The translations under genes were made by a program, and so were the position numbers. The notes beneath the pieces are model-generated. The model ran no database searches, was not told where the DNA came from, and saw nothing but the letters and a program-made list of their open reading frames with translations. Positions 1,994 through 14,013 of a DNA stretch of 17,074 nucleotides are shown here, piece after piece. The stretch spans positions 45,742 to 62,815 of the forward strand of contig JBBIPP010000011.1 of NCBI GenBank assembly GCA_037442745.1, in the 5' to 3' direction. How positions within the stretch are numbered: position 1 is the stretch's first letter; each line of letters begins with the position of its first letter. The stretch is from an archaeon. GTDB taxonomy: Archaea; SpSt-1190; DYHY01.

Positions 1994-3343
1994 ATGCTAG
2001 AATCCCTTGCCGAAAAGCTCCAGAACGCAATGAAGCGCCTTGCTGGAAAGGATGTTGTCGATAGGCAGTCTGTCGAAGAATTCGTAAAGGAAATGCAGCG
2101 GGCTCTGATTGCAGGGGATGTTGGAGTTGATCTTGTCTTCCAATTGTCGGAGAGGATAAGGAAACGGGCTCTTGAGGAGAAGCAGTTGGTCGGCCTCTCC
2201 CTAAAGGACCACGTCTTGAAGGTAATTTATGAGGAGCTTTTGGGAATAATAGGCAAGGGCGCCCCGTTTGACACCTCGAAGAGACCTATTCGTATAATGA
2301 TGTGCGGGCTTTTTGCCGCGGGGAAAACGACAACCTCCGGGAAATTAGCTCTTTGGTTAAAGAAAAGGGGCTTGAAAGTAGCGCTTGTTGGGGCGGACAT
2401 CTATAGGCCTGCCGCCCAGGAACAGCTCCGGCAATTGTCAGAGCAGATAGGGGTTGACTATTTCGGGGAAGGGACTGATATTGTCGGAATTGTCTCTGAA
2501 GCCTCCAGGAATTTTGAACGGCACGACGCAATAATATATGATACTGCAGGACGGAACGCTTTCGACGGGGAAATGCTTGACGAGCTCATGAAAGTGAAGG
2601 GAATTGTCTCCCCAACGGACATTTTCCTGGTCGTTGCAGCAGACATTGGGCAGGCGGCCGGACGGCAGGCGAACGAGTTCTCCAAGGTCGGGCTCTCGGG
2701 AGTTATTGTCACCAAAATGGAGGGGACTGCGAAAGGTGGCGGAGCAATAGCCTCCTGCGCAACTGCCGGGGCTCCGGTAGTTTTTGTCGGAACCGGGGAA
2801 AAGATGCGGGATTTGGACATTTTCGAGCCGAAAGGTTTCGTCTCAAGGATACTGGGCTGGGGTGATGTGTCGGCTCTCCTGAGAAAGGCGGAGGAAATTG
2901 CAAGGGAGAGTTCGCTTAACCCTGAGGACATTCTGAACTCGTTCAGTCTCAACACTTTCTACAAGCAGTTGGAAGCTGCCCGAAGCATGGGCCCTCTGAA
3001 GAACGTTCTTCAGATGCTCGGAGCCGGAGGGAACGTTCCGGACGAAATGGTTGTGAAAAGCGAGGAGAAACTGAAAAAATACAAGTTCATTATTGACTCA
3101 ATGTCAAGGAAAGAGAGGTTCAACCCGGAGCTCCTTAATTCCTCAAGAATTGCCAGGATTGCCAAGGGGGCTGGCGTGAAAGAGTCCGATGTGAAAGAGC
3201 TCCTCCAGCACTACAAGCAGGCGGAGAAAATGCTCCGGTTCATGAAGAAAGGAAGGCTTCCCGGTGATTTGGCGAAGAGAATGGGCGGGCTAAAGGGGAT
3301 GAAGGGAGGGCTTTCCGGAATTCCTCCGGGTTTCGGGGGCTAG
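1994..3343 (+). CDS. srp54: Signal recognition particle protein SRP54/Ffh
   Basis: N-domain MLESLAEKLQ, G1 GLFAAGKTTT, DIYRPAAQEQL, DTAGR, TKMEGTAKGGGA and GTGEK. M-domain MGPL...IIDSMSRKERFNPELLNSSRIARIAKGAG, followed by a G/M-rich tail. Confidence 0.98.
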   Translation: MLESLAEKLQNAMKRLAGKDVVDRQSVEEFVKEMQRALIAGDVGVDLVFQLSERIRKRALEEKQLVGLSLKDHVLKVIYEELLGIIGKGAPFDTSKRPIRIMMCGLFAAGKTTTSGKLALWLKKRGLKVALVGADIYRPAAQEQLRQLSEQIGVDYFGEGTDIVGIVSEASRNFERHDAIIYDTAGRNAFDGEMLDELMKVKGIVSPTDIFLVVAADIGQAAGRQANEFSKVGLSGVIVTKMEGTAKGGGAIASCATAGAPVVFVGTGEKMRDLDIFEPKGFVSRILGWGDVSALLRKAEEIARESSLNPEDILNSFSLNTFYKQLEAARSMGPLKNVLQMLGAGGNVPDEMVVKSEEKLKKYKFIIDSMSRKERFNPELLNSSRIARIAKGAGVKESDVKELLQHYKQAEKMLRFMKKGRLPGDLAKRMGGLKGMKGGLSGIPPGFGG

Positions 3344-3382
3344 GGCAGAAAATCCTATTAATCCAGATTGTTGAAAAAGCGA

Positions 3383-4031: not shown

Positions 4032-4493
4032 GGGGGCCATGCACAGTTCAATATAACGACAATCCAACAATCCATCCGAACTTTGGAAAATGGAGGGTTG
4101 TCTTCAAATCACTTATTTTCCGAAGACAATGATAAAGGAGGGATTGGGAGCTTTTCCTTATTTAGACGTTTTGTCCAATAGGGCGATTTATTGAAAAAAT
4201 GTTCAGAGGAGCTTGAGCGGAAAGGCTGGAATATCCTGATTATTTTGGAAGGGGGCTTGGTTGCAAGAACACTTGAAAATGCCCTGAAAAAAGCACACCC
4301 GGAATTGCCTGGCGAATATTTCCCGGACAAGCCCGGAAAGGGGGAGGGGTTCAAAGAAGAGCATCCGGGAATGATTGTCGACTCTTCCCCTGAAGCGCAG
4401 GTGATCAATGCGACTGGGCTAATTGCAAACGCAGGGATAACACTTGACTGGAGATTGCTCTCCCCTCTCCTGCCAATTCCCCGGAAATCGTGA
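4032..4493 (+). pseudogene. Hypothetical ORF (4191-4493), possibly the 3' part of an interrupted gene
   Basis: One frame is open 4032-4178, interrupted by TAG at 4179, then open to TGA 4491-4493. The distal part has protein-like composition (LKKCSEELERKGWNILIILEGG...). No family recognised. Confidence 0.35.
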
Positions 4494-4560
4494 CATACCG
4501 GGTTTCCATCGGAGGCGTTCCAAAAGGCGCTGGTTCCCGAAGGTTCCCGAAAATGAAATA

Positions 4561-4569
4561 TTTTATAAA
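4561..4569 (+). promoter_or_regulatory. TATA box of the rpl21e operon
   Basis: TTTTATAAA with an A-rich BRE-like stretch (gaaata) just upstream, ending 23 nt before ATG 4592. Confidence 0.7.
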
Positions 4570-4591
4570 CCTCTGGAAAGGGCGCTAAACC

Positions 4592-4888
4592 ATGGCAAAA
4601 AGGCCGCGAGGTCCGCGAAGCAAATCACGCTACAAAATGAGGAAAAGCCCGAGGACCCGGGGAATTCCTAGCGTCTCAAAAATTATGAAAAAGCTCGAAA
4701 TAGGGGCAGTTGTCTCCTTCGATGTCGAGCCATCAATGCACAGGGGACTTCCGCCTTCAGTTTTCCAGGGTTTGACCGGAAAAGTTGTTGGAAAGAGGGG
4801 ACGGGACGGCTATGTTGTCCGCTTCAGGCAGGGAAAGGCCTGGAAGGAGCTTGTCACAACCGCAGTCCACCTCAAGGAAACGGGATGA
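4592..4888 (+). CDS. rpl21e: 50S ribosomal protein L21e
   Basis: Basic 98-aa protein: GPRSKSRYKMRK..., EPSMHRGLP..FQGLTGKVVGKRG, K.L.T.AVHLK. Conserved position before rpoF. Confidence 0.96.
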   Translation: MAKRPRGPRSKSRYKMRKSPRTRGIPSVSKIMKKLEIGAVVSFDVEPSMHRGLPPSVFQGLTGKVVGKRGRDGYVVRFRQGKAWKELVTTAVHLKETG

Positions 4889-4897
4889 TTTTTCAAA

Positions 4898-5257
4898 ATG
4901 GAAAAACAGACAGCCGAAATCGGAAGCTCAACGCCCGTGTCGCTAGCCAAGGTAAAGGCAATTCTCTCAAAGAGAGAAAAGGAAGGGGCGCTCCATTTCG
5001 AGCAGAAAATGTCCCTTGAATATGCGAAAAAATTCTCAAAGCTTGATGAGAAAGAGGCGGAAGAGCTGATTGAAGAGCTCAACAAGCTCGAAATCCCGAG
5101 GTTCAAGGAGAGGCATGCCGTCAAATTGGCTGATCTCCTACCTGAAGACCGGGCGGGAATAAAGGCGATTTTCTCAAAGGAGAGCATTAGCCCCAATAAC
5201 GAGCAGGCAGATGCAATTCTCAAGGTTCTTGCCAAGTACAAAGGAAAAGGGAAATAA
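4898..5257 (+). CDS. rpoF: RNA polymerase subunit F (Rpo4)
   Basis: PVSLAKVKAIL, EQKMSLEYAKKFSKL and AVKLADLLPED motifs; synteny rpl21e-rpoF-DUF655-rsmA. Confidence 0.93.
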   Translation: MEKQTAEIGSSTPVSLAKVKAILSKREKEGALHFEQKMSLEYAKKFSKLDEKEAEELIEELNKLEIPRFKERHAVKLADLLPEDRAGIKAIFSKESISPNNEQADAILKVLAKYKGKGK

Positions 5258-5304
5258 AGGAGCTCCTTGTTGAAAGGGGCGTTGAAATTGAAAGAGTGAG
5301 AGAA

Positions 5305-5910
5305 ATGGCTGAAAAACTAATTGTTCTTGATGTTTTGGACACTGGGCATTCTACCGATTCTAGGCCCCTTCACCTCAGGGACAGGCTTGTCCAGGCAATA
5401 TCCGAGGACACGCTCGTTCTTCGGGAGTTCGCAATACTTCCCGACTGGAAGCCGGCTCTTCGGGAATCGTTTGAGCGGGGAGAGTCGGGGAAAATAAAGA
5501 GAATTATTGAAAGAATGGAAGCCGGCCGAAGGGTAGAGACAATTGACTATCAGAGGCTAACAACATCCGCCACAAACGAACTGGATGATGCGGTTTCGGA
5601 AATTGTTGACAGGAACGAAAAGAGATTCGTTGAATTCTTCAACAGGGCAGGGCCCCTGACAACAAGACAGCACAGCCTGGAACTCCTCCCCGGAATCGGA
5701 AAAAAGCACATGTTCGCAATAATTGACGAGAGGAAGGTAAAGCCCTTCGAAAGTTATTCGGACATTCAGACGAGAATCAAGCTCCTGTCCGACCCGAGGA
5801 AAGGGGTTGTAAAGAGGATTCTTGAGGAAATAAAAGAGCCCCAGAAATACTACCTCTTCGTCCAGCCTCCCCTCTCGAAAATCCTCGAGCGTTGGGGCGG
5901 AAGACAGTAG
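5305..5910 (+). CDS. DUF655 family putative nucleic-acid-binding protein (OB fold plus HhH)
   Basis: IVLDVL..GH, FVEFFNRAGPLTTRQHSLELLPGIGKKHMFAIIDER..KPFESYSDI..R and KYYLFV, plus conserved synteny. Start is ATG 5305 or GTG 5296. Confidence 0.93.
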   Translation: MAEKLIVLDVLDTGHSTDSRPLHLRDRLVQAISEDTLVLREFAILPDWKPALRESFERGESGKIKRIIERMEAGRRVETIDYQRLTTSATNELDDAVSEIVDRNEKRFVEFFNRAGPLTTRQHSLELLPGIGKKHMFAIIDERKVKPFESYSDIQTRIKLLSDPRKGVVKRILEEIKEPQKYYLFVQPPLSKILERWGGRQ

Positions 5911-5962
5911 CTACCTGCAAAAGAAAAAGTCTTATTTAGGTGGAAAGGAAGAGTTGTTTCCA

Positions 5963-6559
5963 ATGGCTGGAAAAACCGCTGTCGGCAAACAGGAAATTTC
6001 AGGAGAAATCGCTTTTTTCACTCTTCTCGGGAAAATGAAGAGAATCGGAAGGCGGGGCTGGAACCTCAGGGGAATCGAGACTCCCGAGACAATTGCGGAC
6101 CACTCATACAGGACAGCGGTTCTTGCCTATTATTACGCTGAAAAGTTCGGGCTTGATGTTGCAAAAACTGTCGGGCTCGCCCTCCTCCACGACATAAACG
6201 AGGTTGAAACTGGAGAGAACCCGGGGGACAAGTTTTCCGCAATTTCGAAGGAAAAAAAAATCAGGGACGGGCAAGCTTCCCTCAAAAAAATAACATTTGG
6301 CCTGCCAAAGGCAATTGCGAAGAAATACTCGGAAATGTGGGCGGATGAGAACCTCCGGAAAGGAAAGGAAGCCTCTATTGCGAGGGATGTAAACAAGCTC
6401 GAGCTCGCTTTCCAGGCATTGGACTATGAGCTCGCTGGGCATCCGGGCGAGAGGCTAGATGACATGTGGGCGCATGCGAAAAAGAATGTCTACGACCTCA
6501 GGCTGAAGGCAGTCCTCTCTTCCCTTGAGAAAATGCGCCCGGGAAAAAGGAAAAAATGA
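5963..6559 (+). CDS. HD-domain protein, YfbR/HDDC2 5'-deoxynucleotidase-like (motifs partly degenerate)
   Basis: KRIGRRGW, ETIADHSYR, ALLHDINEVETGE and RDVNKLE. ATG 5963 follows TTATTTA at about 5932. The stop overlaps the rsmA start (ATGA). Confidence 0.88.
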   Translation: MAGKTAVGKQEISGEIAFFTLLGKMKRIGRRGWNLRGIETPETIADHSYRTAVLAYYYAEKFGLDVAKTVGLALLHDINEVETGENPGDKFSAISKEKKIRDGQASLKKITFGLPKAIAKKYSEMWADENLRKGKEASIARDVNKLELAFQALDYELAGHPGERLDDMWAHAKKNVYDLRLKAVLSSLEKMRPGKRKK

Positions 6560-11141: not shown

Positions 11142-11225
11142 TGAGAATTCCGGAGAAAATCAGGAGCGAATTTAAAAAAATTCATGTGGCAAAGTTATTT
11201 AAGCGAAAATGGTCCCCCGGATGCC

Positions 11226-11831
11226 ATGCCTTCCGGTGAAAGTGGGAATTCGCCTCATATCCAAGAAGTTTCAACCGAATACAAAATCAACAATGTTGTT
11301 GTAACAACCCAGCTTGCGAAGAATTTCAACCTGGTTGAGGTAATGAAGAAGGTTCCGGGAAGCGTCTATGAGCCGGGAAATTTCCCCGCGCTCCGCCTGA
11401 AAAAGTACGAGGCCGGATTCCTCCTCTACTCCTCAGGAAAAATCGTCTGCACTGGCGCGAAGAGCACTGACGATGCGAGGGAAAAGGTCGCGCTCCTCCA
11501 GAACGAGCTGAAAAAATACGGGATTTCGACAATTGTAAAGCCCGAGATATTCATAAGGAACATTGTGGCCTCAATTGACCTCAAGCGAGAACTCCGCCTG
11601 CATGAGCTCGCGTGCCTGATGGAGGAGAGCGAATACAACCCGGAATATTTTCCCGGGATGAAGGTCCAGTTCGGAAACACGCGCCTCCTGGTTTTCAGGA
11701 CGGGGAAAGCGATTCTCCCGGGACTCGGGAGCGTTGAAGAGATTGAGAACACCGTTCGGTGGCTCAAGGGGAGGCTGAACTCTACTGAGAAGGAAATCGC
11801 GCGGCAGGGGCTCGCAAAAGCAAAGCGATAA
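11226..11831 (+). CDS. tbp: TATA-box-binding protein (divergent)
   Basis: Two TBP repeats: INNVVVT...YEPGNFPAL...LLYSSGKIVCTGAKS and IRNIVAS...YNPEYFPGM...LVFRTGK. ATG 11226 follows TTATTTAA at about 11195 (ATG 11184 is the alternative). Confidence 0.92.
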   Translation: MPSGESGNSPHIQEVSTEYKINNVVVTTQLAKNFNLVEVMKKVPGSVYEPGNFPALRLKKYEAGFLLYSSGKIVCTGAKSTDDAREKVALLQNELKKYGISTIVKPEIFIRNIVASIDLKRELRLHELACLMEESEYNPEYFPGMKVQFGNTRLLVFRTGKAILPGLGSVEEIENTVRWLKGRLNSTEKEIARQGLAKAKR

Positions 11832-12246
11832 GGAAAATTTTCCGAAAGGGTTTCTTTTTGACTGCACAATCTGCGCGGAATGCTGTCGGGATTCTGGAAA
11901 GCACAGAAGAAGGATAATATTTTCGGAAAAGGAAGCTGGGGAAATCTCCCTCGCCTATGGAATTTCAAAGGAGACTTTCTCCGTTCGGTCTGGGCGGAAG
12001 GACGCCTATTCAAGAAGAATGAGGAAACTCTCCGGGAACTGCTTTTTCCTGAATACGGAGAGCTGGCTCTGCCGGATTTACGGGAAGAGGCCCCTTGTCT
12101 GCAGGTTCTATCCTTTCGAGCTAAGGCAGGACGGCTCCTGGGCCTGCGCGAAAGTAGCTGACTGCGAAGGGCTCGGCAAGGGAGAAGAGGTCCGTCCTGC
12201 GCATTTCAGGCGCCTACTCAAGCGCGCAAAAGAGGTATTTTATTAA
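11785..12246 (+). CDS. YkgJ (CxxCxxCC) family cysteine-cluster protein; start codon uncertain
   Basis: The frame of ORF 12019-12246 extends upstream as FDCTICAECC (from 11857), followed by CFFL, CRIYGKRPLVCRFYPF and CEGLGKG. The frame is open from 11779 but has no ATG/GTG/TTG before the Cys motif. CTG 11785 is used tentatively. Confidence 0.85.
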   Translation: MRRKSRGRGSQKQSDKENFPKGFLFDCTICAECCRDSGKHRRRIIFSEKEAGEISLAYGISKETFSVRSGRKDAYSRRMRKLSGNCFFLNTESWLCRIYGKRPLVCRFYPFELRQDGSWACAKVADCEGLGKGEEVRPAHFRRLLKRAKEVFY

Positions 12247-12247
12247 A
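12238..12247 (+). promoter_or_regulatory. TATA box predicted to drive the H/ACA RNA
   Basis: TTTTATTAAA overlaps the YkgJ stop codon and lies about 31 to 22 nt upstream of G12269, the first base of the hairpin. A purine-rich stretch (aaaagagg) precedes it. Confidence 0.6.
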
Positions 12248-12268
12248 CGCCGGATGGGGGTTTCCCCC

Positions 12269-12345
12269 GCCCCGCCCATAGCCGAACGCGCATGATTGTG
12301 ATGCACAACATCTAACGTGAGTGCGCGTGCGAGGGCGGGGCAACA
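12269..12345 (+). ncRNA. Box H/ACA pseudouridylation guide sRNA (transcript may extend to about 12420)
   Basis: Lower stem GCCCCGCCC (12269-77)/GGGCGGGGC (12333-41). Pocket AUAGCCGA/GCGA. Upper stem ACGCGCA/UGCGCGU. K-turn U-GA ... CGU-GA-G, closed by UUG(U)GAUG/CAUCUAA. ACA at 12343-45, 14 nt from the top of the pocket. Confidence 0.82.
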
Positions 12346-12471
12346 ATTCCCAATATCGTCCTCCCTGAACTGGAGTGGAGGAGGGGACGGGGCCCGGGCC
12401 AAGAGGCAAAGGACGGCAGTTCTTTCCTGAAATAGATTTATAGCTGGGGAAAGGCAATTCTCGTTGAAGAA

Positions 12472-14013
12472 ATGCCTGAACGGAAGAAGAACTGCCCCCT
12501 TGTTCTGGTAATCAGGGACGGCTGGGGATTTCGGGAAAGTTCCGAAATGAACGCTGTCGAGAGCTTCTCTCGGGAGAGCTTTGAGAAAAGGCTTGTCTTG
12601 AAATACCCAAACACCCTTCTTGGGGCGTCCGGGAATTTCGTCGGCCTTCCGGAAGGCTATCAAGGAAACTCAGAAGTCGGCCACCTGACAATTGGCGCGG
12701 GAAGAGTCCTTTTCCAGTCGCTTGAGAAAATAAACAAGTCAATCAAGGAAGGGGATTTTTTCAAAAACGGCGCGTTTCTTTCTGCAATCGAGAACTGCAA
12801 GCGCAATTGCTCGGCGCTCCATATAATCGGCCTTGTGCAGAAGGAAGGGGTTCATTCCCATATTGATCATTTGTTCGCAATCCTTGAGCTATGCAAGAGA
12901 GAGGGGCTCTCGTCAATCAAGGTCCATCCAATAACTGACGGAAGGGACGCTCCCGTGAAAAACGGCATCGGAAACCTCCGGGCGCTCTTGGAAAAACTCT
13001 CTGAGCTCGGATTCGGCGAGATTTCGACAGTTTCCGGCAGGTATTATGCAATGGACCGGGACAAGAAATGGGAGAGGACAAAAAAGGCATATGATGCAAT
13101 TTTCTTCGGAAAGGCGCAAAATTCGTTCTCCGACCCGGAGAAATTCCTCCTCTCCTGCTATGAGAAGGGAGAAACGGACGAGTTCGTTGTTCCGGGAGTT
13201 AGGAGGGACTATCCGGGAATAGGAGATAACGATTCCGTCATTTTCTTCAATTTCAGGACAGATAGGACTAGGCAGCTCACGCAGGCAATTGTCGAGCGGG
13301 AGTTTTCGGGATTCGAGAGGGGGAAGAGGGACTTTTTCCCTGTTTTTGTCGGGATGACTGACTATTATTCGCCAATTGATGGCCTCGGGGAGCGGACGTT
13401 CTTCGCTTTCCCGGCCGAGAAACCTGAAGGATTCCTTGGGGAAATCATCTCCCTCGCTGGCCTCTCCCAATTGAGAATATCGGAGACAGAGAAATACGCC
13501 CATGTGACTTTTTTCTTCAACGGCCAGGTGGAGACTCCTTATCCTTTGGAGGAGAGAATTCTTGTCCCGAGCCCGAAGGTCGCGACATATGACCTCGTCC
13601 CTGAAATGTCTGCTGACGCAATAACTGAGAGGCTTCTTATGGAAATCGACCGGCATGACGTAATAATCGCAAACCTCGTCAACGGCGACATGGTAGGACA
13701 CACAGGGAACTGGGATGCGACACTTCTTGGGGCGAGAAAGGTCGATTCCTGCATTGAGCGGATTGCTGACGCAGTCTTCCAAAGGAACGGGACGCTAATA
13801 GTGACTGCTGACCACGGGAATTGCGAGGACATGACTCCGGAATGGAGGACTTCTCATACATTGAACCCCGTAAGGGTAATTATTGCAAGCAGGAATCCGG
13901 GAATTTCGGGAGCGCGCCTTGCTCGTGGGAGGGGCCTCGCCTCAATTGCACCGACAATTCTGAAAATTCTCGGAATCGAGGCGCCCCCTTCAATGGAAAA
14001 GCCCCTTTTCTGA
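12472..14013 (+). CDS. gpmI: 2,3-bisphosphoglycerate-independent phosphoglycerate mutase (bacterial GpmI type)
   Basis: DGWG, GNSEVGH, GVHSH, DGRD, SGRYYAMDRD, NFRTDR, ETEKYAHVTFFFNG, DMVGHTG and TADHGN. TTTATA at 12437-42. Confidence 0.97.
   Translation: MPERKKNCPLVLVIRDGWGFRESSEMNAVESFSRESFEKRLVLKYPNTLLGASGNFVGLPEGYQGNSEVGHLTIGAGRVLFQSLEKINKSIKEGDFFKNGAFLSAIENCKRNCSALHIIGLVQKEGVHSHIDHLFAILELCKREGLSSIKVHPITDGRDAPVKNGIGNLRALLEKLSELGFGEISTVSGRYYAMDRDKKWERTKKAYDAIFFGKAQNSFSDPEKFLLSCYEKGETDEFVVPGVRRDYPGIGDNDSVIFFNFRTDRTRQLTQAIVEREFSGFERGKRDFFPVFVGMTDYYSPIDGLGERTFFAFPAEKPEGFLGEIISLAGLSQLRISETEKYAHVTFFFNGQVETPYPLEERILVPSPKVATYDLVPEMSADAITERLLMEIDRHDVIIANLVNGDMVGHTGNWDATLLGARKVDSCIERIADAVFQRNGTLIVTADHGNCEDMTPEWRTSHTLNPVRVIIASRNPGISGARLARGRGLASIAPTILKILGIEAPPSMEKPLF

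Follow-up and report, generated by a model that had tools for sequence, protein, structure and literature searches.

A 17,074-nt stretch of an archaeal genome (positions 45742-62815 of contig C11 of the source genome, G000; hereafter the window, whose coordinates are used unless another contig or locus is named) very probably contains, on its plus strand from 12269 to about 12348, a gene for a single-hairpin box H/ACA guide small RNA (sRNA) that is predicted to be transcribed independently. Given such a guide, the most likely substrate is the uridine of the organism's own 23S rRNA that corresponds to Escherichia coli U2504 in the peptidyl-transferase centre (PTC), and the probability that both statements hold is put at roughly 0.7. 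The reading is based on the structure of the hairpin, its conservation and covariation, an invariant guide pocket, unique complementarity to the 23S rRNA and the presence of genes for Cbf5, Nop10 and L7Ae. The RNA gene is unannotated and lies in a 225-nt spacer between the stop of an open reading frame (ORF) with a CxxCxxCC domain (12246) and the start of the iPGM gene (12472). The source genome is archaeal, comprises 1.136 Mb in 20 contigs with 49% G+C and is 94.5% complete; its class, which in the sampling used here is also the whole phylum, is represented by 17 genomes or species (G000 and 16 others). The parts of the hairpin, in order along the RNA, are the following.

12269-12277, plus strand: 5' strand of the lower stem, 9 nt, with the probable 5' end of the RNA
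12278-12285, plus strand: 5' guide strand of the pocket, 8 nt, of which 12280-12285 is complementary to 23S rRNA
12286-12295, plus strand: 5' strand of the GA stem, with the closing A12286, seven more stem positions and G12294 and A12295 of the kink-turn (K-turn)
12296-12315, plus strand: C-stem and apical stem-loop (GAUG/CAUC, loop CACAA)
12316-12318, plus strand: 3-nt bulge of the K-turn (C12316, G12317, U12318), on the 3' strand, the side needed for a K-turn
12319-12328, plus strand: 3' strand of the GA stem, with G12319 and A12320, then eight stem positions, the closing U12328 last
12329-12332, plus strand: 3' guide strand of the pocket, GCGA, 4 nt
12333-12341, plus strand: 3' strand of the lower stem, pairing with 12269-12277 in nine of nine Watson-Crick pairs
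12343-12345, plus strand: ACA box, after a single spacer, A12342, beyond the lower stem

The architecture proposed in a preliminary description of this DNA was borne out. The perfect 9-bp lower stem (12269-12277 with 12333-12341) and the bipartite pocket with its 8-nt and 4-nt strands are present, as is the 7-bp upper stem, which extends from C12287-G12327 to U12293.G12321 with six Watson-Crick pairs and one U.G pair and to which an eighth, pocket-closing pair, A12286-U12328, also drawn by RNAfold, has been added. Reading of the sequence likewise confirms a complete K-turn, with the CGU bulge, the G-U pair and the tandem sheared pairs G12294.A12320 and A12295.G12319. The GA stem thus delimited, from A12286-U12328 to A12295.G12319, has ten layers, and with the closing pair added, the spacing of 14 nt that had been claimed between the pocket top and ACA becomes exact (12329-12342). 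This organization agrees, as had been suggested, with the published determinants of archaeal H/ACA guides (Toffano-Nioche et al. 2015, PMC4652768). The class is defined there by a bipartite internal loop on top of a lower stem of 7-9 bp; productive folds count exactly ten stacked layers up to the second G.A pair, starting from the closing pair, which itself stands 14-15 nt from ACA, and their lower stem is typically 9 bp long. Muller et al. (2008, PMC2377435) place the target 14 or 15 nt from ACA and stress the 3' guide arm as the most important one. The hairpin has the ten layers, the 14 nt and the 9-bp lower stem of these rules.

The fold expected from the preliminary description is reproduced by RNAfold, with a free energy of -42.2 kcal/mol on the plus strand, z = -4.41, none of 200 shuffled sequences as stable, and the same fold in the minimum free energy (MFE) and centroid structures; the minus strand stands out less (z = -2.79). 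Relaxing the structural descriptor genome-wide and adding a target filter gave 179 matches versus 108 in the reversed control, which is uninformative on further guides. Since the bare descriptor is unspecific, the case for the RNA rests on conservation and covariation, on the population data and on the unique rRNA complementarity.

The search for targets covered the 16S and 23S rRNAs, each encoded by a sole gene copy in the genome, and 41 tRNAs.

Contig C8, 749-2212: 16S rRNA gene
Contig C8, 2635-6394: 23S rRNA gene

The pattern sought was, from 5' to 3', the complement of the 3' guide strand, U-N and the complement of the 5' guide strand. The best site is U2585 of the own large-subunit (LSU) rRNA (G000, C8, position 5219), flanked by 4 + 6 contiguous Watson-Crick pairs with zero wobble pairs. 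On one side GCGA (12329-12332) pairs with UCGC, the stretch of 23S rRNA that directly precedes the target U, and on the other 12280-12285 pairs with six 23S bases starting two positions 3' of it, so that U2585 and G2586 are left unpaired. The duplexes have predicted energies of -8.5 kcal/mol for the 5' arm (six Watson-Crick pairs) and -3.6 kcal/mol for the 3' arm (four). No better-pairing target, the existence of which would have spoken against the earlier assignment, emerged: the runner-up in the 16S and 23S rRNAs has seven pairs on one side, with 3-4 wobbles, and the best tRNA site has six pairs. When the 12 pocket bases were permuted and both arms were required to be at least 3 bp long, 0 of 300 shuffled pockets reached 10 Watson-Crick pairs, and 10 of 300 did so with wobble pairs allowed. 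The exact motif of 4 + U + N + 6 occurs twice in 2 x 1.14 Mb versus 0.54 occurrences expected; one is the 23S site and the other lies at position 68023 of the minus strand of C8.

From a match to the conserved 23S segment quoted in the preliminary description, and with the E. coli numbering used there, we take LSU position 2585 to be the equivalent of E. coli U2504 in the central loop of domain V; on that basis G2505 is the neighbour left unpaired, and the 5' and 3' arms cover 2506-2511 and 2500-2503, respectively. The pairing of AGCCGA with UCGGCU downstream of the target U, as first envisaged, was recovered, the own 23S rRNA carrying UCGGCU and forming six Watson-Crick pairs. The other arm had to be redrawn: instead of CGA(GG) with (CC)UCG, GCGA pairs with UCGC (2500-2503), and there is no pairing to 2498-2499. 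It had also been foreseen that G12329 would be mismatched at 2503 if this organism lacks a pyrimidine at that position. The base at the 2503 equivalent of the own 23S rRNA is C, so the foreseen mismatch becomes a G-C pair with G12329; opposite a target with A at 2503, only -1.5 kcal/mol would be left for the 3' arm. Among 21 archaeal genomes with a match at this place, the 2503-equivalent base is C in 10 and A in 7, both bases occur in G024 (one copy each), and three are unreadable by the motif. The genomes with C include G000, G002, G004 and G009 of the same phylum, that is, C is not rare in the relatives sampled. In G030, C replaces the target U itself.

The own 23S rRNA gene also contains an A/T-rich insertion of about 750 nt, located about 30 nt beyond the predicted target U in the 3' direction (about 4116-4866 of locus L001, equal to about 5250-6000 of G000 contig C8 and about 2616-3366 of the own LSU rRNA). 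It is absent from G004, G006, G022, G028 and G039, and in G002 about 160 nt occupy the same place. No ORF of at least 110 aa was found within the insertion, which includes a 12-nt unit repeated five times in tandem (L001, 4386-4445) and is a candidate rRNA intron or expansion segment.

Homologues of the hairpin were found by BLAST over 40 relatives in G001, of the same genus (88% identity), and in G003, of the same family (76%), with no convincing further homologue in this set; a 15-nt match in G002 was judged not to be a guide. Invariance in the three-way alignment extends to the two pocket strands (on the 5' side together with the flanking bases), to the two GA dinucleotides, to U at the third position of the bulge and to ACA. 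The covariation part of the verification suggested at the outset was positive: six of the 23 pairs have changes on both sides that are compensatory in the three sequences, a level of covariation that 1 of 500 shuffles reaches, and 95.7% of the alignment cells are paired versus 29-49% after sliding the partners by 1-3 columns. The lower stem is 100% paired in all three sequences, with one pair changed on both sides and one on one side; four of the eight pairs of the GA stem are doubly compensated, and the pocket-closing pair covaries from A-U to G-C in G003. Most of the apical stem is kept, as is its loop, with one compensatory pair there, and the C-stem is weak in G003.

Contigs of four other metagenome runs cover the locus, two of the runs carrying identical contigs. 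Three further populations were compared, X3 and X4 at 90-95% identity and X6 at under 90%, and none of the 40 base differences and none of the 12 indels listed for X3/X4 and X6 falls inside 12269-12345; 15 of the 20 differences of X3 in 12000-12365 are among those listed. The flanks vary, with differences at 12257, 12265 and 12351 and indels at 12253-12268 and 12366-12407.

A covariance model (R1) searched against all 17 genomes of the phylum gave full-length matches only in G000, G001 and G003, and a partial match of 30 nt in G013 (E = 0.018). A K-turn-anchored pattern scanned over the same 17 genomes also matched in G004, G006 and G008; these matches have no upper-stem complementarity and were therefore taken as chance. 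Exact-pattern scans of genome and metagenome contigs returned at least 120 and at least 119 stretches, respectively, mostly bacterial. Among the 153 pattern occurrences in the matches listed, both stems are present only in L137, whose hairpin does not differ from that of G001 by a single letter.

A TATA box had been placed at about -30 to -23, and an A/T-rich box is indeed present there.

12237-12248, plus strand: A/T-rich TATA-like box TATTTTATTAAA, -32 to -21 relative to G12269, putative archaeal promoter

Inside this box falls the stop codon (12244-12246) of the CxxCxxCC ORF that precedes the hairpin. A/T boxes occur at a similar place in G001 (about -40 to -22) and G003 (-28 to -23), in spacers that are otherwise G+C-rich, and an H/ACA sRNA of Nanoarchaeum equitans is preceded by a box A promoter of its own, some 26 nt before its start (PMC3491384). 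The indels of X6 all fall either in the interval from the box to 12269 or beyond 12366, which fits an RNA start at or near 12269. Judging from these sequence features, the box is the putative promoter of the sRNA. A scan for bacterial-type promoters and terminators, a type of scan that excludes archaeal promoters, found none.

The protein components named in the preliminary description were found in part: cbf5, nop10 and the gene for L7Ae are present, and gar1 was not found. Cbf5 (357 aa) has DKCLD, TruB_N, TruB_C_2 and PUA domains and the catalytic motif GTLD; Nop10 (57 aa) is encoded beside a 288-aa ORF and occurs in 17 of the 17 genomes of the phylum; L7Ae has 126 aa. No synthase of the RluA/RluC family (PF00849) was found in the genome. 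By analogy with solved archaeal H/ACA ribonucleoproteins (RNPs), the K-turn would be bound by L7Ae, and the lower stem and ACA by the PUA domain of Cbf5, with Nop10 as the bridge between Cbf5 and L7Ae. The ten-layer GA stem and the 14-nt spacing would then place the pocket top at the active site of Cbf5, the pocket strands would pair with pre-23S rRNA on both sides of LSU U2585, leaving U-G unpaired, and Cbf5 would isomerise U2585 to pseudouridine. On this reading the RNA would be transcribed, be assembled into an RNP and direct the modification, and the particle would work without a recognisable Gar1.

Several observations weigh against this assignment. As to the guide itself, the strict structural descriptor gave four matches in the genome versus three in the reversed, non-complemented control, which argues against its specificity. 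The 3' single strand, with 4 nt and a 1-nt spacer, departs from the usual 5-6 nt (PMC4652768). In the MFE structure two G-C pairs close part of the pocket. The Rfam part of the verification was negative, with zero matches in the window at the gathering score; the RNA is a member of the H/ACA structural and functional class and of no curated Rfam family. Covariation was measured on three sequences only, all kin, and beyond the metagenome differences listed there are 36 more differences and five more indels, some of which could fall in the hairpin. As to the target, the 3' guide arm of only 4 bp is at the short end of the reported active range, and a 4-bp 3' arm with two G.U pairs has been reported inactive (PMC2377435). 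The 23S rRNAs of G001 and G003 were not found in the search of relatives, which makes a comparison of guide and target impossible there, and G002, of the same family and 84% complete, has the same target sequence with no detectable guide.

The undetected Gar1 belongs with these points. Gar1 (PF04410) has no Pfam match in G000 even at E <= 10, and a hidden Markov model built from nine archaeal Gar1 proteins gave a best E value of 2.9 against all G000 ORFs of at least 40 aa. The same Pfam search detected Gar1 in none of the 17 phylum members, versus 17 of the 24 other archaea sampled, to be read with the caveats that Pfam missed one of four archaeal controls, that the genome is 94.5% complete and that the protein is short. 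Given the missed control, a divergent Gar1 is possible and absence is unproven: Gar1 has been either lost in this phylum or has become very divergent there. Classic archaeal H/ACA RNPs have been reported to retain some activity without Gar1 (PMC11077068), and a gar1 null mutant of Thermococcus kodakarensis is viable (PMC6138745).

The alternative that survives best, unlikely as it is, accepts a genuine H/ACA guide with another substrate (an mRNA, an sRNA or a second rRNA site) or with the role of a non-catalytic folding chaperone of 23S rRNA. It draws on the short 3' arm (4 bp, -3.6 kcal/mol), on the second exact 4 + U + N + 6 site at C8(-)68023, on Gar1, which supports turnover, not being found, and on two points from the literature: archaeal guides can have several targets (PMC2377435), and no equivalent pseudouridine was seen in the available literature on Pyrococcus abyssi or Sulfolobus islandicus. 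However, the 23S site is the only all-Watson-Crick match of 10 bp in the stable RNAs, the geometry at that U is the canonical catalytic one (ten layers, 14 nt, unpaired U-N), the pocket strands stay invariant while the stems change, and the rRNA C at 2503 suits the guide, all of which favour the U2504-equivalent uridine as the substrate.

The genes around the hairpin are relevant to another, much less probable alternative, in which it is an L7Ae-binding K-turn element that acts in cis as a regulator or terminator of mutase-type genes and resembles an H/ACA guide by chance.

12472-14013, plus strand: iPGM gene, phosphoglycerate-mutase-type, 3' neighbour of the hairpin in G000
Locus L010, 1715-2470: neighbour in G001, His_Phos_1 family
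Locus L011, 176-1381: neighbour in G003, ApgM-type PhosphMutase, convergent with the hairpin

A phosphoglycerate-mutase-type gene thus adjoins the guide in three of three genomes, and in G000 and G001 the hairpin lies about 125 nt upstream of it on the same strand. Yet the three neighbours belong to three different families, and in G003 the convergent orientation of the gene rules the hairpin out as its 5' leader. Nor would a leader or terminator explain the ACA, the 14-nt spacing, the ten-layer GA stem and the pocket complementary to 23S rRNA, and no terminator-like T run follows 3' of the hairpin. A functionless, GC-rich intergenic hairpin arisen by chance is hardly credible: the near-equal descriptor matches (4 versus 3 in the reversed control) and the lack of an Rfam family match are outweighed by conservation in genus and family with six compensatory pairs, invariance among the listed metagenome differences while the flanks vary, z = -4.41 and the unique rRNA complementarity.

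Upstream of the guide gene, the following features have been recognized in the window.

11184-11831, plus strand: gene for a TATA-binding protein (PF00352, E = 6.8e-34), second gene upstream from the guide
11836-12246, plus strand: CxxCxxCC-domain reading frame, open from at least 11836, with the Cys motif inside
12256-12268: small G5-TTT-C5 hairpin, directly upstream of the lower stem

The first ATG, GTG or TTG of the CxxCxxCC frame is at 12019, downstream of the Cys motif, and the gene either has a non-canonical start or is truncated. The 5' neighbours of the guide are unlike too, with a CxxCxxCC gene in G000 and a CYTH gene in G001. The small hairpin at 12256-12268 is not kept in G001 and G003 and is a site of indels in metagenome run X6.

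If the modification is real, archaea can place a pseudouridine by means of a guide on the PTC nucleotide that RluC modifies in E. coli. H/ACA guides are poorly catalogued beyond a few model archaea and are missed by gene callers and by Rfam; the present hairpin is unusually clean and can therefore anchor a covariance model for the lineage. Were the assignment correct, it would provide natural cases for how short a working 3' guide arm can be and for an H/ACA RNP that works in vivo without Gar1. The coupling of G12329 with C2503 of the rRNA is a ready test of co-evolution, given more genomes with both loci. A wider picture can be offered tentatively, and is rather doubtful as a whole: a phylum of mostly small genomes with a three-protein, Gar1-less H/ACA machine (Cbf5-Nop10-L7Ae), one family of which would possess a dedicated guide for the U2504 equivalent, an RNA-guided, convergent counterpart of RluC matched to the C2503 of the lineage, whose pseudouridine could tune the wall of the catalytic centre that senses drugs and nascent chains. 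The predicted target and the apparent phylum-wide lack of Gar1 are the parts most worth following.

Among the closest known systems are the single-hairpin guides of Pyrococcus (for example Pab21, Pab91 and Pab160/Pf9; PMC2377435, PMC4652768), which share with the present RNA the 9-bp lower stem, the bipartite pocket, the ten-layer GA stem with a K-turn, ACA at 14-15 nt and a target region in domain V. They differ in that there is no detectable sequence homology, the 3' strand has 5-6 nt whereas here it has 4 nt and a 1-nt spacer, and the host here has a 1.1-Mb genome without a recognisable Gar1. Of the Rfam H/ACA models, only HgcG/Pab40 (RF00064) can be aligned with 12269-12341, by its third hairpin (model positions 200-268); at E <= 10 it stands alone as an H/ACA match among matches at chance level, with 10.4 bits versus a gathering score of 77 and E = 0.89, a score so far below the threshold that there is no family membership. 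Pab40, moreover, has three hairpins and other targets (PMC2377435). The H/ACA sRNA of N. equitans is similar in belonging to a very small archaeal genome, in its intergenic position and in having its own box A and K-turns, and is unlike in its 159 nt, its two hairpins and its targets, which are only predicted (PMC3491384). Pae_sR207 of Pyrobaculum is another archaeal H/ACA-like guide with proposed targets in domain V of 23S rRNA, L2596 and L2597; these numbers are P. aerophilum's own, and L2596 was judged non-productive (PMC4652768). As S. islandicus U2597 corresponds to E. coli 2457, the sites of Pae_sR207 may lie in helix 89.

Among the pseudouridines published for archaea, 13 are expected in the 23S rRNA of P. 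abyssi (Muller et al., PMC2377435), where guide Pab35 is credited with three sites whose modification in E. coli is the work of RluE, RluC and RluB. An offset of +92 between the two numberings was inferred from P. abyssi 2549, 2672 and 2697, and it would put the predicted site at 2596, off the reported list. The E. coli positions used here are 2457 and 2605 along with 2580 and 2504, the last two as given in PMC13602947. At P. abyssi 2603, E. coli 2511 by the same offset, pseudouridine is made by Cbf5 without a guide (PMC2377435). Three 23S pseudouridines have been described in S. islandicus, and for two of them E. coli equivalents are tabulated, 2457 and 1917, neither of which is 2504 (PMC11077068, Table 1); those of Haloferax volcanii are 1940, 1942 and 2605 (PMC5029457). 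A guide to this position has not been seen in print in the literature covered, with Pyrobaculum and supplementary target tables outside its scope, and the target is probably new.

The comparison with RluC concerns function. RluC is a stand-alone synthase of the RluA family that makes pseudouridines 955, 2504 and 2580 of E. coli 23S rRNA. Its pseudouridine 2504 makes E. coli less susceptible to the PTC-binding inhibitors tiamulin, linezolid and clindamycin (PMC13602947). The same PTC nucleotide would be modified in both cases, by a protein-only enzyme of another synthase family in E. coli, whereas here an RNA guide would provide the specificity and Cbf5, of the TruB family, the catalysis. The guide system and RluC would thus be functionally convergent, not homologous.

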